Assembly: GCA_963842885.1 (NCBI GenBank)
Contig: CAWJIE010000008.1
Location: forward strand, 1 to 60,132
Direction: 5' to 3'
Length of the DNA: 60,132 bases
Origin: an uncultured Nitrososphaerota archaeon
Lineage (GTDB): Archaea > Thermoproteota > Nitrososphaeria > Conexivisphaerales > DTJL01
Of the stretch, positions 1,309 through 36,155 are shown piece by piece. A model generated the notes under the pieces. That model worked only from the letters and a program-made list of their open reading frames with translations. It searched no databases and had not been told where the DNA came from. How positions within the stretch are numbered: position 1 is the stretch's first letter; each line of letters begins with the position of its first letter. The translations under genes were made by a program, and so were the position numbers.

Positions 1309-3009
1309 TCACGTTTGGCTGTTCGATCTGGCGTACCATTTGGCCATGTATTCCCTCACCATCCTGTACGTGTTGAACCTCGGGCCTATGGCAGCTATGC
1401 CCGCTTTGGACATCCCAAGCCATCGGCTGTGCCCCTTATAGTATGTGGGTAGGACCTGGTCCGCCAGCTTGGTGTAAAGGGCCTCCATATCCTCCGAATC
1501 ATCAGACTCGGTCAAGGCGTCCCAAGTCGGTCGTCTCCCGATCCCCCATCCATTGACCCCTTCCACGCCGCCTTCAAGCCACCATCCGTCCCACACGCTC
1601 AGGTTGAGGACGCCATTCAAGGCGGCCTTCATCCCGCTGGTCCCGCTGGCCTCCAAGGGCCGACGAGGAGTGTTGAGCCAGACATCGCATCCTGACACCA
1701 TGACCTTCGCTATCTCTATGCTGTAATCCTCTATGAACGCCACCTTGACCTTGTCCGTCTTCATCATCACTTGATTGGCCTGCTCATACATTCGAACCAA
1801 GGATTCCTTCCCCGCGTCATCCTTTGGATGAGCCTTCCCAGCGAATACCAATTGAATCCTGCCATGCTCGTCGGCTATCTTGGCAAGTCTGCCAGGATCT
1901 CCCAGCACCATGCCGTTCCGCTTGTAGGCGGTTATCCTCTTCGCCAGGCCGATGGTGAGGGGCTCTTCGGAGAAGTCCGCCGTAGACTGGGCGTCAACGA
2001 GCGAAACTAGCTTCGCCTTAGCGGAACGGTGCGCCATGGCCAATTCATCGGAAGGTATCTCATATGCGTGCACCAGCAGATGCGGCTCCGCCTCCCACGA
2101 CGGAATGTACTTGTCGAAGACGCCTTTGATTTCCTCCTGGACCCACCTCCTGTGATAGACACCGTTGGTGACGTGCTCTATGGCGTCGCTGTGCAGGATC
2201 CTTCCGGACGTAAACCTATGCTTCAAAGACACGGCGTTGGTAAGGCAACTGTACTTTGTAGCGAGATGTGAAAGGCTGATGGCGTCGCTGCCGGCTTCGG
2301 AACCCCAATCCATCCAATAATACTTCTTCAACACATCCCTCACCATCTGCAACGGAAAGGAGTCGTGCCCGCCAGCCACGGGAGTATGTGTGGTGAAGAC
2401 GCAGCGTCTCCTGACTTCTGCGAGCGATCTGTACTCCTTCAGGAGCTCCACGGTGAGCAGGGCTGCGTGGCTTTCGTTCATCTGATATAGGTCCGCGCTG
2501 ATATCCAAGGCTTTGAGGGCACGATATCCACCTACGCCCAGAATCAGCTCCTGTATCAGTCTCTCCCTCCCTTCGCTGAGATACAACCTGTCAGTTACGC
2601 TCCTGAAGGATGGTGGATTCTCTAGGACATCGGTATCCAGGAATATGACAGGAACGTCCACACGCCCCTTAACGGTGTACTGCCAGAGCTTCAGGCTCAT
2701 GACGCTGTCCTCCACTTCAAGCCTTACGACAGGGCGGAGGGGGGTCAGCCTTTCCTTGTACAGCCAGCGACACTCTAAATCCTGCTGCTGGCCACTAGGG
2801 GAGAGCTTCTGCTTTGTGTAGCCAGCTTTGTATAGCAGAGTCAGGAAGACGGCTGGTATGCCCATATCCGCGAAGGCATAGGCAGTGTCACCCGCCAGTA
2901 TCCCCAGACCCCCGCTGTATGTGGGGATATCGCTCTCGAGCCCTATTTCCATTACAAAGTAGGCCAAGGTCATAGAACAGTCCTCAGTGAACTCGCTTGG
3001 CAACCCCAT
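1309..3009 (-). CDS. glgP: Alpha-glucan (glycogen/maltodextrin) phosphorylase
   Basis: YSGGLG, MNESH, FTTHTP, AGKAHPKD and PLP-lysine motif EASGTSGMK; true start may be the MTLAYF Met. Confidence 0.95.
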   Translation of the reverse strand: MGLPSEFTEDCSMTLAYFVMEIGLESDIPTYSGGLGILAGDTAYAFADMGIPAVFLTLLYKAGYTKQKLSPSGQQQDLECRWLYKERLTPLRPVVRLEVEDSVMSLKLWQYTVKGRVDVPVIFLDTDVLENPPSFRSVTDRLYLSEGRERLIQELILGVGGYRALKALDISADLYQMNESHAALLTVELLKEYRSLAEVRRRCVFTTHTPVAGGHDSFPLQMVRDVLKKYYWMDWGSEAGSDAISLSHLATKYSCLTNAVSLKHRFTSGRILHSDAIEHVTNGVYHRRWVQEEIKGVFDKYIPSWEAEPHLLVHAYEIPSDELAMAHRSAKAKLVSLVDAQSTADFSEEPLTIGLAKRITAYKRNGMVLGDPGRLAKIADEHGRIQLVFAGKAHPKDDAGKESLVRMYEQANQVMMKTDKVKVAFIEDYSIEIAKVMVSGCDVWLNTPRRPLEASGTSGMKAALNGVLNLSVWDGWWLEGGVEGVNGWGIGRRPTWDALTESDDSEDMEALYTKLADQVLPTYYKGHSRWLGMSKAGIAAIGPRFNTYRMVREYMAKWYARSNSQT

Positions 3010-3046
3010 TCATAGCTATATTCGTTGTGGTTCGATGACCTGCCTA

Positions 3047-3327
3047 TGTTGTCCTGAAATTAGTATCACCCCCTGGTAAGCAGGATTAGAGCCAGGTGGG
3101 TATGGAGCAAGGGATACAGATACTTCGTCTACATGAAGCTGGACCCCGTCAAGGTGGAGTGGATCGTCCGACAGAAGGAGGAGGGAGCACTGACGAACAG
3201 GACCATAGCCGAGAGCATGCGGGTGTCTCCGACATGGGTGAAGGTCATGTGTAGGCGATACAGGGAGCTGGGCCGGGTCCCCGCGCTGATGAAGCCCGGG
3301 AGGGCTAGCGCCCATTTAGGTTCTTGA
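3047..3327 (+). mobile_element. Truncated IS481-like element: left end plus N-terminal HTH of the transposase (3133..3327)
   Basis: TGT-initiated end at 3047; ORF TNRTIAESMRVSPTWVKVMCRRYRELG..KPGR resembles a transposase HTH and stops abruptly with no DDE domain. Confidence 0.6.
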
Positions 3328-3442
3328 TTCGAGTTCCGGAAGCCGAGGGAGCTACTGGTGGGGTGAAAGCATAGGCTGTGAGCCCGACAGACCGATCAAT
3401 GAAGAGTGTGAGTCTATGCGTGAACTCGCGGGCTTCTAATCA

Positions 3443-4048
3443 TCATGCCCGTTCCTCCTTCTTCATCATTCCCGAAATAGCGTCTTCAACCGCATCCACA
3501 GGCGTGATCCCTTTGCTAGCAGCATAGGCGTCAACCGCTTTCGCTATGTCCTCAGGTATCTCGTAGATCCTGACCCTCTTGAACTCGAGAGCCCTAAGCA
3601 AGTCAAGCCAGTCAGGTTCAGGTATCCTGATGCAATTGAAGCCCTTTGTCTTTACTTCGTATGATTCCCAGTAGTATCTACCTGAAGACTGATCCGCATA
3701 GGTTAGCGTCAGGGCCGATCTAAGGTACATATGACGACTATCAGTCTGTTTCGACCTCAGCTCTTCCAGCCGATTGAGAGTGGATGGGGAGATCTCTAGG
3801 TAGATGGCGCCATGAGCTGTCGCATTAGAATAGAGCAATACTGGTGTCTGAAGGTGCGAAATTCCCAGAATGAAGGGAGGAAGAGGCGCTGCCGTTTCCG
3901 TTATCCCGAATGAACTGGTCACCAGCTGTGGTTGAGCATGCTGCGATGACCGTAAAGACTGAGGATAATGAATCTCGATGTTGAATTGTATGATGGGGGA
4001 AGGATGGGGACTCGCTGCGATTGCCTGGATGAAATCAGCTTCGCCCAT
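3443..4048 (-). CDS. Hypothetical protein with possible C-terminal ribbon-helix-helix (CopG-like) segment
   Basis: 201-aa ORF; tail IYEIPEDIAKAVDAYAASKGITPVDAVEDAI has an RHH-like pattern. Confidence 0.6.
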   Translation of the reverse strand: MGEADFIQAIAASPHPSPIIQFNIEIHYPQSLRSSQHAQPQLVTSSFGITETAAPLPPFILGISHLQTPVLLYSNATAHGAIYLEISPSTLNRLEELRSKQTDSRHMYLRSALTLTYADQSSGRYYWESYEVKTKGFNCIRIPEPDWLDLLRALEFKRVRIYEIPEDIAKAVDAYAASKGITPVDAVEDAISGMMKKEERA

Positions 4049-4314
4049 ATGTAAGAAAGGCTTGATGGTATCCCTTAAACCTGCCTAATGCAGGCTCTCC
4101 CAAATCTCCGTCGGATAAGTGAACCTGCCAAAAATGCTTACACCTCACGAATTGACTCCAATGTCGGGGAAAGCTCTTCTTGAGCCACAGTTGCCAACCG
4201 TCAAGCCGAGTCGATGACACAACCGCCATCCACCCAACAACCAGTTGAAGGGAATCCGATTTCTGGTGGCTTTGAGTACCCAAGTGAGGCCGAATCCCCA
4301 ATAGTGCGGACTCG

Positions 4315-4333
4315 CGCAGGTCCAAGCCTACGC
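4315..4333 (+). repeat. Intergenic repeat, box B copy 1 (CGCAGGTCCAAGCCTACGC)
   Basis: 19 nt identical to 6091..6109. Confidence 0.85.
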
Positions 4334-4407
4334 CCAAGGTTCACAGTTGGTCAGAGTCGCTTCATATAAGAACGTGAAAACCCATTGGACTGTGTGGAGG
4401 GAGACTG

Positions 4408-4722
4408 GTGCGAAAGAGGAACGCAGCAATCATCGCGTGCTTAGCTGCAGCACTGGCCCTGGTTTTCTTCTTGGCACCGATAGTTGCATTACCTATGGTG
4501 AATGGCTGCCTAGGCGGAAGCGGGCATGGCTGTACAGTTGCTGGAACGTTCAGAGTCACCAGAGTCGTCTCTCCTAGCGGCGTGCTGTTGGGGTTTGGCG
4601 AAGTCCGATACGAAGCGCAGTATGGGGAGAATTGTCCTTCAGCTGGAATCTGTCTTCCTTACGACAAGACAGGCTTCTTGTTCGCTTGGAACTGTTCCGA
4701 CTTCGCCCAGTATCTGCATTGA
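4408..4722 (+). CDS. Small secreted/membrane-anchored Cys-rich protein
   Basis: Basic N-terminus plus hydrophobic helix, several Cys; TATA-like CATATAAG upstream. Confidence 0.6.
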   Translation: MRKRNAAIIACLAAALALVFFLAPIVALPMVNGCLGGSGHGCTVAGTFRVTRVVSPSGVLLGFGEVRYEAQYGENCPSAGICLPYDKTGFLFAWNCSDFAQYLH

Positions 4723-4780
4723 CACCCTGGCTTTCTCCAGCTCCAGGCGACCTCGAAGACTAAACATGAAAAGGGTCTCC

Positions 4781-4848
4781 ATTGGTCTAACCTATTGTTT
4801 TCAATAACTTAAAGATGAACCAAGTCAGCCCATTCGCAGGTCCGAGCC
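4781..4848 (+). repeat. Intergenic repeat unit (degenerate palindrome + ACTTAAA + box B)
   Basis: GTCTAACCTA...AACTTAAA at the same spacing as the 6683 copy, followed by AGCCCATTCGCAGGTCCGAGCC (4827..4848). Confidence 0.75.
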
Positions 4849-4928
4849 AGAATCTGAGATGGCCGGTCGGGGCCGTCTTGGTGGTAACTGTCGTCGGATA
4901 AGCATCTATATACTCATCATTGGATGAT

Positions 4929-5348
4929 ATGAGACAGACGTTGGCCCCTAAGAGAACGACGGTGGCGGTTATAGCGGCGGGCCTGATTGTGGTCGCAGTA
5001 GGTGCTCTGTTGTACTTCGGTGGCATATTTGGCGGCGGTCAGAAGTTCTCCGTCAGTGGCTTGCAGATTTCCCATGGTCTCGTTCCTTTCGGAGCAGTCT
5101 CTTTCAATCTCACCAACCACAACGGCCTCCCCATTTCGTCTGTCTCCGTTAGTGTGAATCAATCTTTGGCGTCTCCACGCGGCACACCAGTCTCCAGCAG
5201 CAATCCGATTTCTCCTAATCAGTCAATGGAGCTTCTGTACGTGATGCAGGAGACCGTGGTCTCAGGCCAGAGTTACCCCGTCCAAATCACGGTCACCTTC
5301 GGAGACGGAAGTATGGCCTCCTACTCTGCGACTGTCACCGCTTTGTAG
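4929..5348 (+). CDS. Pilin-like, N-terminally anchored beta-rich surface protein
   Basis: KR followed by a hydrophobic helix, S/T/V-rich beta domain, C-terminal GQSYPVQITVTFGDGS. Confidence 0.65.
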   Translation: MRQTLAPKRTTVAVIAAGLIVVAVGALLYFGGIFGGGQKFSVSGLQISHGLVPFGAVSFNLTNHNGLPISSVSVSVNQSLASPRGTPVSSSNPISPNQSMELLYVMQETVVSGQSYPVQITVTFGDGSMASYSATVTAL

Positions 5349-5463
5349 CAACTGGCTCAGAGGACTCCGGCGTTTCAGGGATCGAGTCTCCAGAGTCTTG
5401 CGCGATGAGAACGGGGAGTAGCCGCTCCCATGAGATTAGCCTAGCCGGAAAAGGCCAATTCAT

Positions 5464-5529
5464 TTTTGTCTAACAAACAAGTTGGGCAGACTCAAAACTG
5501 AATCAAGCCCATTTCCGCAGGTCCAAGCC
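5464..5529 (+). repeat. Intergenic repeat unit (palindrome + box B)
   Basis: TTTTGTCTAAC-AAACAA-GTTGGGCAGAC, then AGCCCATTTCCGCAGGTCCAAGCC (5506..5529). Confidence 0.85.
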
Positions 5530-5546
5530 CACATTATGCAATCGGC

Positions 5547-6011
5547 CTAAGGTCGGGGTCGTGTGTACGCCTTCATGTCCAGCTCTAGGAAGACTTCGCC
5601 CATGGTCCAGTCGCCCATGAACTGCTTGAAATGATGAGCTTCATAGAGTCTCCGAGCATCAGGGCTAGCTGTGGAGGTTTTGAACCCGATAGCCCCTTTC
5701 TTGATTGAGTAGGCTATTGCTCTTTTCAGCAGCCTTGAGCCAACGCCTTTGTTGCGGAATTCCGGGTCGACGTAGAAGCTCGTAATGAAAGAGACTGGAC
5801 CGCCATCGATGATGTCCTCACACATCACGGCATGGATGAACCCTAGGACAGCGTTCTCCCCGTTGGTGGCTACAAGGAGCTCTCCGTTCTCCACCGCTCT
5901 CTTAATTGACGCTTCTCGAGGGGTCTTCCAATGCAACCAATCGATTATGCCCGACTCGATAGCCGGGGTATCCTCTAAGGTCGCTCGACGAATCGTGATT
6001 CTCTCCGACAA
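5547..6011 (-). CDS. GNAT family N-acetyltransferase
   Basis: IRRAT.ED start, acetyl-CoA motif FYVDPEFRNKGVGSRLL, ARRLYE..HF. Confidence 0.9.
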   Translation of the reverse strand: MSERITIRRATLEDTPAIESGIIDWLHWKTPREASIKRAVENGELLVATNGENAVLGFIHAVMCEDIIDGGPVSFITSFYVDPEFRNKGVGSRLLKRAIAYSIKKGAIGFKTSTASPDARRLYEAHHFKQFMGDWTMGEVFLELDMKAYTRPRP

Positions 6012-6079
6012 ATCCCACTGGTGCCTCCTCAGGTGCCAGATTCAGCTATTGCAATCTACAAAAGGCTTCTCTTTCAGCT

Positions 6080-6109
6080 AGCCCATTTTTCGCAGGTCCA
6101 AGCCTACGC
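6080..6109 (+). repeat. Intergenic repeat, box B copy
   Basis: AGCCCATTTTTCGCAGGTCCAAGCCTACGC. Confidence 0.85.
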
Positions 6110-6111
6110 AT

Positions 6112-6248
6112 AACAAGACTAGGTTTGTCTAAGGAGCCACTTCAAGACCTCAAATGAGCGACTAGTTCTGTTTGCCTAGGCTACAGGTTGGCGAAACTTA
6201 AACTCCAGAGAAGAGGGCCAAGCCTTACGGGACTCAAACCCACGTTGT
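6112..6248 (+). repeat. Full intergenic repeat unit
   Basis: 6112..6207 aligns without gaps to 6625..6720 (76/96 identical by hand count); degenerate box B near 6230..6248. Confidence 0.85.
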
Positions 6249-6263
6249 GATTTGTCGAGCGAC

Positions 6264-6536
6264 CTAAGTCGAGGGAGTGCCTACGACGAACGCATCGTAA
6301 GCGAAGGCCGTCCTTATCACAAGAGCTGAAATCTGGCTCAGTGCAAATGCAGGTTCCATAGAGGAAGTAAGAAACACATCCACGGACAGGCCGATGATTC
6401 CTCCTATGACCAACATCCAACCGAAGCGAGTCCGCCTTCGGAGATACAGATAGCCCAGACCAGGTACGACAAAGTTGCAAATCGCCGCCGAGATTCGGCC
6501 GTTCCTATCCGAATGGTCGAGGGGAATCATGTCCAA
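6264..6536 (-). CDS. Small membrane protein (TM2-like)
   Basis: AAICNFVVPGLGYLYL motif followed by two hydrophobic helices. Confidence 0.7.
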   Translation of the reverse strand: MDMIPLDHSDRNGRISAAICNFVVPGLGYLYLRRRTRFGWMLVIGGIIGLSVDVFLTSSMEPAFALSQISALVIRTAFAYDAFVVGTPST

Positions 6537-6624
6537 GCGAATTGGTAAGGCACGCTAGGTTATTGGCTCTTCGGATATGTCTCCGTCTTCTCGTAGCCCC
6601 AAGACCACCACCGGCTGGTGCTTC

Positions 6625-6753
6625 AACAAGACCTGGTTTCCCTAAGGAGACACTTCAAGCCCTTCAATAACCGACTAATAGTGTTTGTCTAACCTACAGG
6701 TTGGGCAAACTTAAAAACCACTAACGGCAGTGGGCCAGCATTCAGCCCCCGTT
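6625..6753 (+). repeat. Full intergenic repeat unit with the best palindrome
   Basis: GTTTGTCTAAC-CTACAG-GTTGGGCAAAC (6683..6710) followed by TTAAAA; ungapped match to the 6112 unit. Confidence 0.85.
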
Positions 6754-6949
6754 CAGTTATTCTATTGTTCCCAATAACATAAAGATGATTAAGTGATGGT
6801 CGACCAGGCAACTGTTCCCAAGCTCGTCCAGAGATAGCGGGTCATCAATAGACGATCGGCTTTGTGTATAGCTTATATGGGCGACAATATGAATTACGTG
6901 TCTTCGAACCCAACCCTTTTTTAGAACTCATGCCGCAACAATCATCGAC

Positions 6950-7357
6950 ATGTTCGCCCGTGGCCCTCCCAAGGTCTACCTGAAGCTGAGGGAGGGCTTG
7001 ATGGCCGAGAGGGTCTTCGAAGGCCTCACTGGCGCAGGCCTCACCGGCTCTGGCGGCCTTGTCCTAGCGTTGCTCAGCGGAGACGTGCCCCAGGATTCCC
7101 GCACGTATTTGGAGATCGCCAGGCTTCTGAGGTACCACCGCGCGGGCAGGGTCGTGAGGATCACCGTGGCGGCCGCTGAGGGAGTCGCCGCGGCGGACTT
7201 CGGGGCCTTCGTCACACTCAGGTCCCTCGCCCAGCACGATCGATTCGTCGTCTGGCTGAAGGCCCGGAACAGGTCCGCTGAATACATCATAAGCAGGTCT
7301 GGGAAGGTCATTTCAAAAAAGGAGTCAGCGTCGGCAGCTCTGGACCAGTACGCCTAG
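6950..7357 (+). CDS. Hypothetical protein
   Basis: 135-aa ATG ORF with host-like GC, convergent on and overlapping the tbp stop. Confidence 0.55.
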   Translation: MFARGPPKVYLKLREGLMAERVFEGLTGAGLTGSGGLVLALLSGDVPQDSRTYLEIARLLRYHRAGRVVRITVAAAEGVAAADFGAFVTLRSLAQHDRFVVWLKARNRSAEYIISRSGKVISKKESASAALDQYA

Positions 7358-7911
7358 TAGATCATGAGCTCTTCGGCTTCGAGGAGAGTGTGAAGGTTGT
7401 TCACTGCCTTGTAGACTTCCTCTTCCTTCTTTGCTCCTGTGCAGACCAGCTTTCCGCTGGCGAAGAGGAGGATCACCGTCTTGGGCTCCAGCATCCGATG
7501 TATCAGGCCGGGGAACTGCTCGGGCTCGTACATGCTGCGCGGAAGGGTGAGCGCCGCCTCCTCCAGCTTGACGCGGCCTCCCAGACTCGCCGAAGCGACG
7601 ATGTTCTGGATCTCCACTTCGGCCTCGTTCTCCACCTTGATTCCCGATCTCCGGAGCTTCTGGACAACCATCACCACGGCCTTGCGGGATTGCTCTTCGC
7701 TCTTTGCTCCTGTGCACACCATCTTGCCGGAGTTGAAGATCAGCGTGGCGGTCTTCGGTGCCTTGAGGCGGAAGACCAGGCCCGGGAACTGCTCCGGGTG
7801 ATACTCCACATCTGGAAAGAGCCTCGTGATTTCGTTGAGATCGATCTTCTGGTTTACGCTTGCTGAAGCCACTACGTTCTCAATCGATATAAGAGGAGTG
7901 GTTTTCGGCAT
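7354..7911 (-). CDS. tbp: TATA-box-binding protein
   Basis: Two TBP repeats: IENVVAS..YHPEQFPGL..LIFNSGKMVCTGAK and IQNIVAS..YEPEQFPGL..LLFASGKLVCTGAK. Confidence 0.99.
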   Translation of the reverse strand: MPKTTPLISIENVVASASVNQKIDLNEITRLFPDVEYHPEQFPGLVFRLKAPKTATLIFNSGKMVCTGAKSEEQSRKAVVMVVQKLRRSGIKVENEAEVEIQNIVASASLGGRVKLEEAALTLPRSMYEPEQFPGLIHRMLEPKTVILLFASGKLVCTGAKKEEEVYKAVNNLHTLLEAEELMIY

Positions 7912-7928
7912 ATAAATCGATAATCGCT

Positions 7929-8234
7929 TTATAAAGCCTGCATATAAACTTTCGATGTCGGGGTTCTGTGACGTCTGCGGTTGCTACCTTCAAAGTCATC
8001 TTCGTGTGACAAGTCGGTTGCTGTCACTCGCATCTGAATCAATTCGTCGGCTTTTTCGACAATCCTCAACAACTTCCCTTCATCCGGCACATCCATTCCG
8101 TTCTCTCTGTAATAGCTGTAGGCTTGCTCTATCAGTCCTCTGAAGGCTTCGAGTATGTCTTCGTACGCCTTCTTGTATTCCAGTGCCTTCGTATACTCCT
8201 GCAGAGCCAGCAGCTTGAGCTGATATTCAGTCAT
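7929..8234 (-). CDS. Helical hypothetical protein reading out through the element end
   Basis: ATG overlaps the end of the upstream gene; RRRHRTP is encoded by the putative TIR. Confidence 0.55.
   Translation of the reverse strand: MTEYQLKLLALQEYTKALEYKKAYEDILEAFRGLIEQAYSYYRENGMDVPDEGKLLRIVEKADELIQMRVTATDLSHEDDFEGSNRRRHRTPTSKVYMQAL
7941..7954 (-). promoter_or_regulatory. BRE-TATA promoter of tbp
   Basis: Minus strand CGAAAG-TTTATATG, 30 nt upstream of the tbp ATG. Confidence 0.65.
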
Positions 8235-8724
8235 AGGCGGATGGAATCTCCTTTTGCTTCCTCTTGGCCTCATCAATGATGTTTTTGAAAGTGTCTAATG
8301 CCTGTTTCTCTTCATTCGAGAGAACTGGTCTCTTGCCAAGCTCTTCGGATAATTCTCCAAGTTTCTGCTCATTGGACTGCATGACGGCGTTGATAGTTGC
8401 GGTAAGCTCACTCCTCAACTTCAGCACCTGATAATACAAAGATTCCATCATCATGATTGTCGTGAAGTGACCCATCGCAGCAGCAACCTCTTCATCAAAG
8501 AGCTTCATGTCTTCTGGTCTGGGCGTGTTCTGAAGCCCTTTCTCATAGAAATCGAATGTATCTACAAGTGCGTTGAGCAAGTCCCGAAATACCTCTTTGG
8601 CGAAATGATCATCGCTGAGCATCTCCAGATGCTTGTTGGAATCGACGATTTGTTTAGATGTAGTCTTTATATCTTGAAGGAACTTGATGCGCTCCGTCAA
8701 CCACACAGGCTCCTTGCGCGACAA
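8227..8724 (-). CDS. Coiled-coil/helical hypothetical protein
   Basis: 165-aa ORF starting 3 nt after the RHH gene. Confidence 0.6.
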   Translation of the reverse strand: MSRKEPVWLTERIKFLQDIKTTSKQIVDSNKHLEMLSDDHFAKEVFRDLLNALVDTFDFYEKGLQNTPRPEDMKLFDEEVAAAMGHFTTIMMMESLYYQVLKLRSELTATINAVMQSNEQKLGELSEELGKRPVLSNEEKQALDTFKNIIDEAKRKQKEIPSAYD

Positions 8725-8727
8725 AAC

Positions 8728-8883
8728 CTACTTCTTCCCTTCCTGCTTCTTTATGTAGTCGACAATAGCCTTCTCGACTAACTCTGAAAGCTCCATGTCA
8801 TTCCTTATGGCAGTTATCTTCGCTTCCTTCCAGAGTGCTGGGTCAACCTTGATTGAGGTAGCTTCCCTCTTGACTTCGGGCAT
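8728..8883 (-). CDS. Ribbon-helix-helix (CopG/Arc-like) regulator, 51 aa (absent from the ORF track)
   Basis: Manual translation MPEVKREATSIKVDPALWKEAKITAIRNDMELSELVEKAIVDYIKKQEGKK; divergent from the transposase. Confidence 0.8.
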   Translation of the reverse strand: MPEVKREATSIKVDPALWKEAKITAIRNDMELSELVEKAIVDYIKKQEGKK

Positions 8884-8977
8884 TATACCATCAGACCACT
8901 ATACCACTGCCCTCCTTATAAGAGTGGTGGTAAACGTTTAAATAACCATAGCACCATACTACTGGTAGTGCAGTAGT

Positions 8978-10081
8978 ATGATGGACAACCGCGCCGAAAG
9001 GGGTCGGATGATTGCGGAGACATTCGGACAGGTCAAGAGGCTTGACGAGACGACATACAAGGTTCGCTCTCAGACTTCAAGCGCAATCTACGAAGTGACA
9101 GGAACAGAAGCAGGTTGGGAGTGCAATTGCCCTGACTACAGGTTCAGGGCGATAACGTGCAAGCATATCTACGCGGTCAAGTTCTCTTTCGAGTTCAGGA
9201 AGGAGGTTCAGAGCGAAAGGGTCGTCGAGCCTGTCTCCGTCGAATCTTGTCTCTTTTGCGGTTCTCAGAAGTTGAAGAAGTCGGGGGTAAGGCACAACGC
9301 CAACGGAGACATTCAGAGGTTCGCCTGCCTCGACTGCCACAGGACTTTCAGCCTCAACATAGGCTTCGAAAAGATGAAGCACAACCCGCAGGCGATTACC
9401 TCGGCCATGCAACTCTACTTCAGCGGTGCGTCACTGAGGAAGACGGCTGACTCATTGAGGCTCTTGGGTTCGGATGTCTCTTACAAGACCGTCGAGCGAT
9501 GGATAACGAAATATGTCTCCTTGATGGATGGCTACGTCCAGAAGCTGCAGCCCAAGGTCTCCGACGCTTGGAGGGCTGACGAGATATTCGTCAAGTTCAG
9601 CGGGAAGATGGAATATGTCTTCGCGCTGATGGACGATGAGACTCGCTACTGGATCGCCCAACAGGTAGCCTCGACGAAGGGAATCTCCGATGTCAAGCCC
9701 ATGTTCTACGAAGGCGCGGTTATAGCTGGCAAGAACCCGAAGACGCTCATAACTGATGGAGCGCCTAACTATATAGACGGTGCGAGAGCATTTTGCAAGA
9801 ACGGACACCCGATAAACCACATAAGGGAGATTCGCCTTACCGGTCAGATACACAACAACAAGATGGAGAGAATGAACGGGGAGATAAGAGACAGGGAGAA
9901 GGTAATGCGAGGTTTGAAGGTCGAAGATACTCAAATCCTCGCAGGAGTCCAGCTATTTCACAACTACATCAAGCCACACGAAGCTCTGAATGGGAGAACC
10001 CCTGCCGAGGCTGCGGGGATTGTCGTGAAGGGAGAGAACAAGTGGCTGACGCTGATTCAGAATGCAAGTCTGTCTCAGTAA
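8978..10081 (+). CDS. IS6-family DDE transposase with N-terminal SWIM and zinc-ribbon domains
   Basis: SWIM CNCPD..CKH, CLFC..CLDC, HTH, WRADE / ITDG / NNKMERMNG catalytic motifs. Confidence 0.92.
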   Translation: MMDNRAERGRMIAETFGQVKRLDETTYKVRSQTSSAIYEVTGTEAGWECNCPDYRFRAITCKHIYAVKFSFEFRKEVQSERVVEPVSVESCLFCGSQKLKKSGVRHNANGDIQRFACLDCHRTFSLNIGFEKMKHNPQAITSAMQLYFSGASLRKTADSLRLLGSDVSYKTVERWITKYVSLMDGYVQKLQPKVSDAWRADEIFVKFSGKMEYVFALMDDETRYWIAQQVASTKGISDVKPMFYEGAVIAGKNPKTLITDGAPNYIDGARAFCKNGHPINHIREIRLTGQIHNNKMERMNGEIRDREKVMRGLKVEDTQILAGVQLFHNYIKPHEALNGRTPAEAAGIVVKGENKWLTLIQNASLSQ

Positions 10082-11818: not shown

Positions 11819-12307
11819 TCACGCTCTTCCCTTGTCAATTCTCGGCCGCTGAGCAGACTGGGGTTCCTTCAACAACTCTGGGTGTTTTCTTCCCAAGACC
11901 ATAGAGCATACCTTGATTGCCTCATCTGCGGCTTTCATCCCATCTTCCCGTTTCTTTTCGTCAGCAAACAAGGTGGTGAATTCCTCACCAGAAAAGTGAA
12001 ATAACTTGTTTCTCTTCAGTTGAAGAGGGCGAATCGTTCTATACTCGACGTTGGTTATTACTTTGAGATGTTTGAGCGTGACAATCTTCCAATCGAAACG
12101 CACTTGAGACAACAAATCGAAGAACAAGTCTGAAATTGGGTCGGCGGCAGGAAGACGAAAGATATCCCAGACGAACAGGTCAACCAAACCTTCAACATAG
12201 CCCCAGCTGGCCAGCATGTATTCTCCAAACAGCCCTTTGCGCCTCAGTTCGAATAAGTCGAGAGCCACTCGAGACTTGGACTCACTCAATTCTCTCCACA
12301 CTCGCAT
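11819..12307 (-). CDS. HEPN-like protein (RxxxxH motif)
   Basis: Helical protein with YVE near the N-terminus and KRNKLFH. Confidence 0.6.
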   Translation of the reverse strand: MRVWRELSESKSRVALDLFELRRKGLFGEYMLASWGYVEGLVDLFVWDIFRLPAADPISDLFFDLLSQVRFDWKIVTLKHLKVITNVEYRTIRPLQLKRNKLFHFSGEEFTTLFADEKKREDGMKAADEAIKVCSMVLGRKHPELLKEPQSAQRPRIDKGRA

Positions 12308-12725
12308 TCTGTATCAATGTCAGCCACTCATTCTCTGCCTCGGCCTTAATCCCTGCTGCCTCGGCTGGGGTCTTCCCGTCCAACGCCATGTGAGGGCGAA
12401 TGAAGTTGTGGAAGACCTGCATCCCTGTCAGGATTGCGGTATCTTCGTTCTTCAAACCTCTCATGACCTTCTCCCTGTCTCTAATCTCCCCATTCATCCG
12501 TTCCATCTTGTTGTTGTGAACCTTTCCCGTCAGCCTGATTTCCCGAATGTGGGTAACTCTCTGATGCGGAGTTGAGAAAGCCCTTGCTCCGTCGATGTAG
12601 TTGGGCGCACCGTCCGTAATCAAGACCCTCGGATTCTTCCCCGCTATCTCTGCACCCTCGAAGAACATGGGCTTGACATCATCAATCCCCTTCTGAGTGG
12701 CTACCTGCTGGGCGGTCCAGAAGCG
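12282..12725 (-). pseudogene. C-terminal fragment of an IS6-family transposase
   Basis: Close match to the C-terminal ~145 aa of the 8978 transposase (ITDGAPNYIDGARAF, HIREIRLTG, NNKMERMNGEIRDREKVMRGLK); N-terminus missing. Confidence 0.9.
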
Positions 12726-35981: not shown

Positions 35982-36093
35982 TGGAGGTGGGGGTGGGACT
36001 TCCCGCCGCCCTGTGCCCGGAGGCCAGGCGCGGCTCTTGAACCCACGTGGACTCGCTCTGCAGGCGAGTTCGTAACCGCTCCGACACCCCACC
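35982..36093 (-). tRNA. tRNA-Cys(GCA) with a 37-nt intron at position 59/60 (35999..36035); CCA encoded
   Basis: Acceptor GGTGGGG/CCCCACC, anticodon arm CTCGC-CTGCAGA-GCGAG, T stem GTGGG/CCCAC, U73, BHB-like junction, TTTTAATTA box about 28 nt upstream. Confidence 0.93.
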
Positions 36094-36155
36094 TGCGGTG
36101 CAACCCTACGCATAGCAAGCTAATTAAAAGTTGCGTGATAGTCCGGAAACGGGCT

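Follow-up and report, generated by a model that had tools for sequence, protein, structure and literature searches.

A 14-bp site bounds shuffled gene cassettes in a lineage-specific array system of Conexivisphaerales archaea

Background

A 60,132-nt stretch of DNA from an uncultured Nitrososphaerota archaeon of the order Conexivisphaerales (contig CAWJIE010000008.1, assembly GCA_963842885.1; the whole stretch is called the window below) carries near its left end a row of small, unrelated genes separated by short repeats that all lie on one strand. Are these genes cassettes exchanged at a dedicated site, or do they merely lie among intergenic repeats that serve some other role? An interpretation made from the letters of the window alone (the sequence-only reading) had proposed an undescribed cassette system mobilized in trans. 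Here this proposal is examined in the genome of the window (G000; the window is its contig 8 of 11; 2.03 Mb, 58% G+C, 87% complete), in four other species of the same genus (G001-G004), in wider genome collections and in metagenomes. The arrays hold shuffled cassettes, the breakpoints fall in a single 14-mer, the presence or absence of cassettes varies in populations, and the site is under selection. The cassette-array interpretation is supported, and none of the patterns at odds with it was found, namely single scattered copies with target duplications, repeats acting only as promoters, or an identical gene order in relatives.

Results

The array in the window

The constant part of the repeats is a short element, box B, with the sequence TT-CGCAGGTCCAAGCC-YACG, and its 14-mer (the core) lies at 4315, 4835, 5516 and 6091. 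Allowing up to two mismatches, four copies of CGCAGGTCCAAGCC were observed in the window against 0.70 expected, and 0 of 100 shuffles gave four; a palindrome box was observed three times against 0.01 expected. Further repeats are a 16-mer family starting at 4313, 4833, 5514 and 6089, a 19-mer (CGCAGGTCCAAGCCTACGC) with two identical copies (4315 and 6091) and a third, at 5516, that matches them at 84%, and a 27-mer (CTATTGTT..AAAGATGA) with copies at 4792 and 6762 that are 89% identical. The stretches 6112-6207 and 6625-6720 align without gaps. Every repeat copy in the window is on the + strand. In these respects the repeats described from the sequence alone are real, including the 19-mer identity and the 76/96 match, which was recovered as 79% of 96 nt. 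The features are as follows.

4245..4314, + strand: module M4, a conserved non-coding element directly before core copy 1
4313..4332, + strand: core copy 1 (14-mer 4315-4328, then TACG), the left end of the array in the window
4333..4834, + strand: cassette 1, with a TATA-like box CATATAAG at about 4364, a gene at 4408-4722 and module M1 at 4792-4818
4833..4852, + strand: core copy 2 (14-mer 4835-4848, one mismatch, A to G)
4853..5515, + strand: cassette 2, with a gene at 4920-5348 and module M2 (11-6-11 palindrome and CTCAAA) at 5465-5497
5514..5533, + strand: core copy 3 (14-mer 5516-5529)
5534..6090, - strand: cassette 3, with a GNAT gene at 5547-6011 and no module before the next core
6089..6108, + strand: core copy 4 (14-mer 6091-6104)
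6112..6207, + strand: box A and M2 unit, copy 1 (palindrome GTTTGCCTAGG CTACAG GTTGGCGAAAC, then TTAAA)
6264..6536, - strand: gene for a 90-aa hydrophobic protein, bounded by two box A and M2 units, not by cores
6625..6720, + strand: box A and M2 unit, copy 2
6762..6788, + strand: M1 copy with no recognizable core after it, the right end of the array

One small open reading frame (ORF) lies between successive repeats, and the four genes are unrelated and in either orientation (two on each strand), as had been claimed. The first encodes a 104-aa protein with a hydrophobic N-terminal stretch and six cysteines, a membrane or secreted protein for which no Pfam family was matched. The 142-aa product of the second had been called pilin-like; it does match the model of the pilin UpsA, but weakly (27.5 bits against a cut-off of 130). 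The third is a GNAT acetyltransferase, as predicted (Pfam Acetyltransf_1, E 2.6e-15). The label "TM2-like" given to the 90-aa protein was not borne out, as no Pfam or NCBIfam family was matched. Across 3400-6900 the G+C content is about 0.48-0.55, with flanks at 0.59-0.62; to the right of the array (past 6800) it goes from about 0.48-0.53 to 0.59-0.62, and the next genes are genome-typical in composition.

Distribution in the genome, the genus and the environment

The system extends well beyond what had been seen from the window: the 14-mer occurs 63 times in G000 at up to one mismatch, 46 of these being exact. A profile search with the core (nhmmer) gave 59 copies at 19 bits or more, in 18 places. 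Ten of these places are clusters of 2 to 13 cores; eight of the clusters are on a single strand throughout and two have one switch. This is the clustering in arrays that the sequence-only reading had anticipated, and it is not the pattern of an ordinary family of miniature inverted-repeat transposable elements (MITEs), with copies scattered singly. At C2:103.9-104.6 kb of G000, two opposite core arrays (five cores on the + and five on the - strand) converge on a 700-bp stretch with one 96-aa ORF, and GGGCGGCTRA follows both innermost cores.

Three sister species carry 13 (G001), 45 and 30 (G003) exact copies. No exact copy was found in G004 or in 36 genomes from other genera of the family, order and class, and the reversed pattern, used as a control, had no match in the carrier genomes. 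G004 contains just degenerate relics, with the layout core-like, box A, M2. A collection of 185,579 species genomes contained 41 stretches with the CCATT-prefixed core. Of these, 26 come from three metagenome-assembled genomes titled Conexivisphaerales or Nitrososphaerota archaeon, and the other 15, lone hits in unrelated bacteria, are read as chance. In the Joint Genome Institute (JGI) metagenomes the core was present in 112 stretches (589 kb, 210 cores). At least two cores lie on 51 of them, all on one strand in 49, and the densest stretch has 10 cores in 9.5 kb.

Anatomy of the site

When all copies are aligned on the 14-mer, the parts kept are (CAGCCCA)T2-5, CGCAGGTCCAAGCC and YACG(T/C)C. 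Between unrelated junction pairs, identity reaches 93-100% at each of the 14 core positions, 74-79% at the preceding TT (-2/-1) and 60-68% at +2 to +4; elsewhere it is at a background of about 25-35%. What had been described as one degenerate unit is a mosaic of this invariant core and optional modules, with box B as the junction element. The optional modules comprise box A, the 11-6-11 palindrome and the CTATTG..AAAGATGA box; they stand at the 3′ end of the cassette, upstream of the core. M1 reads CAATTAACCTATTGTTTTCAATAACAYAAAGATGA; M2 reads GTTTGYCTAAS CTACAG GTTGGGCAAAC, followed by TTAAA, and the 70-nt box A precedes some copies; M3 reads GATATTGATTTCTTTTCCAGCAGCGACAGATATCC. No upstream module was seen at 28 of the 59 cores of G000, and M2 stands before only about 11 of them.

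M4, a 70-nt element with the hairpin GGCCGAATCCCC, has five copies in G000: the one in the window (4245-4314) and those at C5:34279-34347, C2:92407-92460, C2:131023-131065 and C3:246973-247016. Three of the five run at their 3′ end into a core or a near-core variant (C8:4315, C2:131028 and C3:247003). M4 had no match in Rfam; it may represent an ancestral or primary chromosomal attachment-site context, or a small RNA gene. Beside the C4 core array, at C4:332441-341839, lie five intergenic copies of another local repeat, GCGTCCACCTAGGTCC within a 38-nt unit. This repeat is core-like (TCGC..GTCCA..GGTCC) and may be a sister site.

The possibility that the repeat units are coding sequence was rejected: the T-run between CCCAT and the 14-mer varies from two to five T and M3 has 1-nt indels, and the units are therefore read as non-coding. 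Running counter to this, ORFs overlap 18 of the 59 cores in a crude longest-ORF set. A known RNA family or a tRNA fragment was likewise ruled out: Rfam gave one sub-threshold snoRNA hit in 3000-9000 and nothing at the gathering score in the window and four array loci, and none of the 31 tRNAs listed by ARAGORN adjoins any core. The site is neither a tRNA gene nor the 3′ end of a gene. T.G pairs occur in the M2 hairpin of all 10 aligned box A and M2 units, and the hairpin folds better on one strand; this short hairpin is the sole conserved helix in the 10 units, with no compensatory pairs. Six junctions folded as DNA on both strands gave z-scores of -0.75 to +1.50 against shuffles. The statement that the repeats are not canonical attC sites therefore holds, as junctions fold no better than shuffles and no IntI was found among the tyrosine recombinases scanned, five of G000 and one of G003. 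Neither inverted termini, around the unit or at cassette ends, nor target duplications were found.

Cassettes are exchanged with breakpoints in the core

G002 is a close relative, with 95% DNA identity in the phosphorylase gene. In it, window 4315-4848 has a counterpart at G002:C69:302-824 (88% over 534 nt, core to core) and window 5500-6108 one at G002:C93:6348-6950 (90% over 609 nt, core to core); these counterparts of cassettes 1 and 3 are both away from the contig with the phosphorylase gene. In these alignments homology starts at the left core and ends just past AAGCCYACG of the right core. Upstream of the GNAT cassette stands M2 in G000 and M1 in G002; the module therefore belongs to the preceding cassette. 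On G002:C69 the Cys-rich cassette directly follows a cassette that in G000 is located at C2:33702-34027 (94%). Cassette 2 (window 4849-5450) had no match in G002, G003 or G004 in a DNA search, and one short, weak match in G001 (63 nt, 78%, window 5097-5159). Most array cassettes of G002 and G003 have no counterpart in G000; for example, at G002:C58:1-15000 one of eight inter-core cassettes has one. Far from being identical in relatives, the gene order is shuffled, with breakpoints in the core. Within G000 there are three paralogous cassette pairs, 74-77% identical and with their cores intact, one of which aligns core to core over 621 nt. Since the 14-mer is intact in paralogous cassettes that are about 25% diverged, the site is under selection.

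The breakpoints were located with 258 unique junctions from G000, from loci of G002 and G003 and from the 112 metagenome stretches. Among the junction pairs, 27 share both flanks, 60 the downstream flank only and 45 the upstream flank only. The 28 downstream-only pairs that align ungapped are 68-100% identical at +1 to +12 and fall to background (11-50%) at -12 to -3. In 15 ungapped upstream-only pairs, identity is 73-100% at -12 to -1 and 33-53% from +5; at +1 to +4 it is 60-80%, where the background is already 44-68%. Identity thus drops on either side of the core, which places the exchange points within TT and the 14-mer.

Population variants were sought by placing contigs of four metagenome runs (X1-X4) on window 2800-7800. 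A 282-nt contig of X1 spans 5282 to 5515, with one other letter in 234, and continues with 48 nt from 6091. Fourteen letters at this joint fit both sides, and the array lacks exactly the GNAT cassette (it skips 5516-6090), which is present in X3. In X1 and X2 there are contigs in which 6145 is linked to 6672 by 14 other letters, leaving one box A and M2 unit and no gene for the 90-aa protein. Most other joints in the metagenomes have sides shorter than 30 nt and come from other repeat copies. Depth is zero over 5639-5972 in X2 and X4, but no sufficiently long-sided contig spans this region and it is not used as evidence.

A role of the repeats as promoters or terminators was rejected because genes of both orientations lie beside the cores: by crude ORF calls, upstream neighbours are in the same direction as the core in 35 cases and opposite in 22, and downstream neighbours in 28 and 31. 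For M1 and M2 there is a slight bias relative to gene direction (17 same, 8 opposite).

Cargo of the cassettes

The 39 inter-core segments of G000 range from 132 to 11,122 bp (median 1063 bp), with a median G+C of 0.541 against 0.583 for the genome. ORFs of at least 60 aa number one in 17 segments, none in 5, two in 7 and three or more in 10. Named cargo in G000 includes GNAT, ParE, AbiEii/AbiEi, a DUF6036 nucleotidyltransferase and DUF3800, as well as ABC-2 transporter pairs, MFS, MscL, helix-turn-helix (HTH) regulators (DUF7347, DUF7343) and an exosortase. The cassettes of G002 and G003 encode hemerythrin, CMD and cNMP-binding proteins, aldo-keto reductase, F420H2-dependent quinone reductase, methyltransferase, NUDIX, UbiA and PIN proteins. 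The variability of the cargo, expected from the sequence-only reading, is large: the 457 ORFs located within 3 kb of a core form 305 clusters, 219 of them with a single member, and most of the ORFs have no Pfam family. The largest cluster is that of a DUF7347 HTH protein, with 14 members at 11 loci. The cargo is typical accessory material, including many ORFans. TATA-like boxes before the genes are preserved in the cassette alignments, which suggests that cassettes bring their own promoters.

Candidate recombinases and other mobile genes

G000 encodes three intact tyrosine recombinases with a C-terminal zinc ribbon, at C3:398624-400138 and as a tandem pair at C5:9507-12109. Those of a second type are intact at C4:323310-324515 and C5:357427-358485 and broken at C5:293407-294550. 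A search with Pfam Phage_integrase gave four places in the genome, none of them in the window. The sequence-only reading, which had seen no recombinase there, needs a correction: a gene for an IS6-like DDE transposase does lie at 8978-10081, with nothing tying it to the repeats. Further candidates in G000 are one serine recombinase, one Y1 transposase, three IS110 copies and IS6-like DDE genes. The co-occurrence with a tyrosine recombinase or HUH transposase that had been suggested was not seen, as none tracks the core among the carrier genomes.

By position, no core is near the integrases at C5:9.5-12.1 kb or C3:398.6-400.1 kb. The 401-aa integrase ORF at C4:323310 starts with VGSNPTP, the usual translation of a tRNA T-arm, which suggests insertion of its element into a tRNA-like sequence. 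No tRNA is called by ARAGORN at this place. The serine recombinase has one copy, distant from all arrays, and was rejected as the engine of the system. The same applies to the Y1 (IS200-like) transposase, which is in G000 and G002 only and was not found in the core carriers G001 and G003. A free element with an attP site was also looked for: one hit in a viral collection, inside a run of ORFs, is read as chance. Cas1 (PF01867, E up to 0.01) was found in none of the five genomes of the genus, with a positive control in 7 of 14 reference genomes.

Two observations point to integrases. In G003, an integrase gene lies together with further mobile-element genes in a 9.6-kb unit between the cores at C59:12474 and C59:22092; the unit has no longer direct repeat of its own at its flanks. 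In G004, the core-free species, no tyrosine recombinase match was found, this being a sample of one with a fragmented assembly.

The IS110-family element encodes an RNA-guided DEDD transposase (NCBIfam IS110 model, 271.7 bits against a cut-off of 140). Its copies, of about 1290 bp, are located in G000 as follows.

C3:189.2-190.5 kb: IS110 copy
C7:19004-20293: IS110 copy
C3:1.4-2.7 kb: IS110 copy

One of them has a broken gene. All three share their ends, have no inverted termini and are inserted after ..TCCAGCA of M3, beside a core, in which they resemble the IS1111-attC elements that target integron sites. No copy was found in the core-bearing G001 and G003, and the element is therefore a guest of the arrays and not their engine; the 7-8-mers that the core has in common with the 5′ non-coding region of the element do not exceed chance (about 0.1-0.4 expected by our own estimate).

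Other features of the window

The IS6-like DDE gene (8978-10081, +), 2.2 kb to the right of the array, has an N-terminal SWIM/zinc finger and scores 89.5 bits with the NCBIfam IS6 model (cut-off 125). It occurs also at window 12297-12725 and at C5:415157-416243; no terminal repeats and no tie to the core were established. A small HTH ORF (3133-3327, +) lies at window 3044-3303, DNA that recurs in five places of G001 at 73-77%; the ORF is probably part of an insertion sequence. The TATA-binding protein gene at 7354-7911 (-) is within a 560-nt stretch that matches four to five contigs of G002 at 76-95% and two contigs each of G003 and G004, and these genomes appear to carry several paralogues of this gene. 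ARAGORN places a tRNA-Cys at 36019-36094; the Rfam scan of the whole window at the gathering score matched nothing.

Discussion

The arrays form a cassette system that is lineage-specific, under selection and built on a site of a new kind; the window holds one array of many. We consider it probable that cassettes are inserted and excised site-specifically at the 14-mer by an enzyme acting in trans; the chemistry, the enzyme and the circular intermediate are what we infer from the junctions. A cassette, as a circle, would consist of the right part of the site (..YACG(T/C)C), a variable stretch of 10-30 bases, one gene or a few, in either orientation and with a promoter of their own, an optional M1, box A with M2, or M3 at the 3′ end, usually (CAGCCCA)T2-5, and then the left part of the site. 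The crossover would take place inside TT-CGCAGGTCCAAGCC, so that each junction would keep one intact copy and the copies of an array would be co-oriented. Integration of a circular cassette at a resident core would generate direct repeats, and recombination between two cores would excise a cassette, as in the X1 variant. The 18 bp CGCAGG|TCCAAG|CCYACG may be viewed as a 6-bp spacer between two imperfect inverted arms of 6 bp each, which is how the core sites of tyrosine recombinases are laid out, and the predicted small hairpin of this site appears in the junction folding. Tyrosine recombinases need matching spacers in both partners, which would account for the invariance of the spacer. The enzyme in trans would most likely be a divergent tyrosine integrase from elements integrated in these genomes.

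Several points weigh against this explanation. The tyrosine recombinases of the carriers G000-G003 are just 23-35% identical to each other, no orthologous tyrosine integrase common to the carrier genomes was found, and an integrase homologue is present in only one of the 112 core-bearing metagenome stretches. Integron-integrase models gave at most 28.6 bits, against cut-offs of 265 and 435, with the five tyrosine recombinases of G000 and one of G003 (NCBIfam). The archaeal XerA model reached at best 91.4 bits against a cut-off of 220, although at 87% completeness of G000 the gene could be missing from the assembly. In the 18-bp site four to five of the six arm positions pair, which is not significant alone given the free choice of centre and spacer length. 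The junction pairs are not independent, as related populations give several each, and shared modules can inflate the upstream-only pairs. The absence of the core from G004 (190 contigs, 90% complete) may be an artefact of assembly or binning. No excised circle was observed, the metagenome runs consisting of contigs, which are unable to reveal one. Finally, homologous or microhomology recombination between repeats of 20-30 bp could leave the same footprints.

The last point leads to a rather unlikely alternative, in which the core and the modules are intergenic repeats with another primary role, such as a binding site for a host protein or an RNA element, and shuffling is a by-product of homologous or short-homology recombination with no dedicated recombinase. 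No recombinase co-occurs with the site, the units are mosaics of M1, box A with M2, M3 and M4 much like bacterial interspersed mosaic elements (BIMEs) and neisserial intergenic mosaic elements (NIMEs), and Sulfolobus-type archaea do recombine via very short homology. The gene for the 90-aa protein fits here, being bounded by 96-nt box A and M2 units and gone where one unit stands. What this alternative does not explain is that breakpoints stay within about 16 bp despite 45-110 nt of adjoining module homology, and that many junctions have only TT, the 14-mer and YACG in common. Moreover, the 14-mer remains intact despite 25% divergence of the genes and is the same in four species, and its copies are oriented independently of gene direction, a poor fit to a transcription signal.

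Two further alternatives invoke transposition. Linear cassettes might be inserted into the 14-mer with a target duplication, as by casposases (14-15 bp) or in CRISPR adaptation. The exact 14-bp length of the invariant part, the short conserved sequences inside both ends (..YACG and CCCATTT..) and the single-strand arrays of repeat, insert and repeat are all as expected. Yet Cas1 is missing from all five genomes of the genus, cassette ends have no terminal inverted repeats, and the IS6-like DDE, IS110 and Y1 transposases do not track the distribution of the core, and we regard this as improbable. Still more improbable is an ordinary MITE or REP-like family of the PATE or REPIN type (REP, repetitive extragenic palindrome), spread by a single-strand HUH transposase and accumulating in insertion hot spots. 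The T.G pairs of the M2 hairpin in 10 of 10 copies with the better fold on one strand, the strict strand bias within arrays and the single Y1 transposase gene of G000 would suit it. But Y1 was not found in G001 and G003 with their 13 and 30 cores, M2 accompanies only about 11 of the 59 cores, terminal inverted repeats and target duplications are absent, and genes travel with their flanking cores. A more radical reading is a cassette recombination system of an undescribed kind, with an asymmetric 14-22-bp site that does not vary between species and an enzyme that would be no integron integrase, Xer, Cas1 or other recognizably conserved recombinase but perhaps a member of an unrecognized protein family or a guide-directed recombinase. 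It would be a Nitrososphaerota analogue of the integron, of independent origin, by which single genes and the promoters they carry would be distributed among many chromosomal loci; we think this reading rather unlikely, too.

Comparison with known systems

The system resembles integron arrays and clusters of attC sites lacking integron-integrases (CALINs) in several ways. In both, co-oriented sites stand between mostly single accessory genes, array content differs among close relatives, most arrays have no adjacent integrase, and the cargo includes GNATs, toxin-antitoxin genes and ORFans. Unlike attC, with its folded R''/L''/L'/R' structure, the site here is defined by sequence, as an invariant 14-mer within about 22-32 conserved nt; genes are in both orientations with TATA-like boxes inside the cassettes, and the arrays are spread out, occupying at least 18 places of a 2-Mb genome. 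It is not a canonical integron: no attC-like fold, IntI, XerA or Cas1 was found, and no recombinase is conserved across the carriers. Because both IntI and the attC structure failed, the system is not filed as an integron. Published archaeal integrons, in the part of the report relevant here, have canonical attC sites and IntI (PMC9668308), and the overview given in a survey of the thaumarchaeal mobilome distinguishes five classes, with none of the present kind, and names integrons among the bacterial types not seen (PMC6563490).

Like the pdif/Xer modules of Acinetobacter plasmids, the arrays have short sites that bound gene modules with no recombinase gene. As described in the pertinent part of PMC8371274, dif sites have an 11-6-11 layout. 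M2 shares this 28-bp architecture, with 11-bp inverted arms and a 6-bp spacer. In contrast to pdif, all copies here are direct, the breakpoints lie in the 14-mer downstream of M2, and M2 is found at a minority of junctions; pdif sites alternate in orientation. Tandem integrative elements at one att site, as among archaeal integrated elements (PMC6563490), also leave short att-core direct repeats between inserts, and the G003 unit with its integrase has this appearance. The tycheposon islands of Prochlorococcus are a further case. The inserts here, by contrast, are mostly single genes with no integrase, and tens of copies occupy many loci and not one hot spot. According to the section on them in PMC6563490, thaumarchaeal att sites have a short median length, 17 bp.

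The modules form intergenic mosaics of optional parts, and all three IS110 copies are in M3. In bacteria, BIME/REP and the neisserial NIME/dRS3 repeats are such mosaics of optional modules and are targets of IS110-family elements. Unlike them, the present repeats bound exchangeable gene units with breakpoints in one 14-mer. CRISPR arrays are similar in having same-strand repeats of about 30 nt with unique inserts between, and the casposon target duplication of about 14 bp has the size of the invariant unit. The inserts differ, however, in that they are 0.13-11 kb long and bear genes, and no Cas1 is present in the five genomes of the genus. The retrieved portions of the literature, from a limited search, included no paper combining Conexivisphaerales and integron and nothing closer, and the system appears to be undescribed.

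Conclusions

Gene-cassette platforms are the best understood bacterial route for sampling accessory genes, and in archaea only attC-based integrons have been reported, as far as the portion of PMC9668308 on this subject goes. With neither IntI nor an attC-like fold, the present system is expected to be missed by searches of the IntegronFinder type. Presence/absence variants are already in public metagenomes, the candidate integrases are few, and the site is short and invariant; if the enzyme is found, enzyme and site would make a compact new recombination tool. The 14-mer can also serve as a simple probe to recover the pool of cassette genes from these uncultured archaea, a peat, soil and freshwater lineage of non-ammonia-oxidizing Nitrososphaerota that gives many of its loci to cassettes bounded by this sequence.

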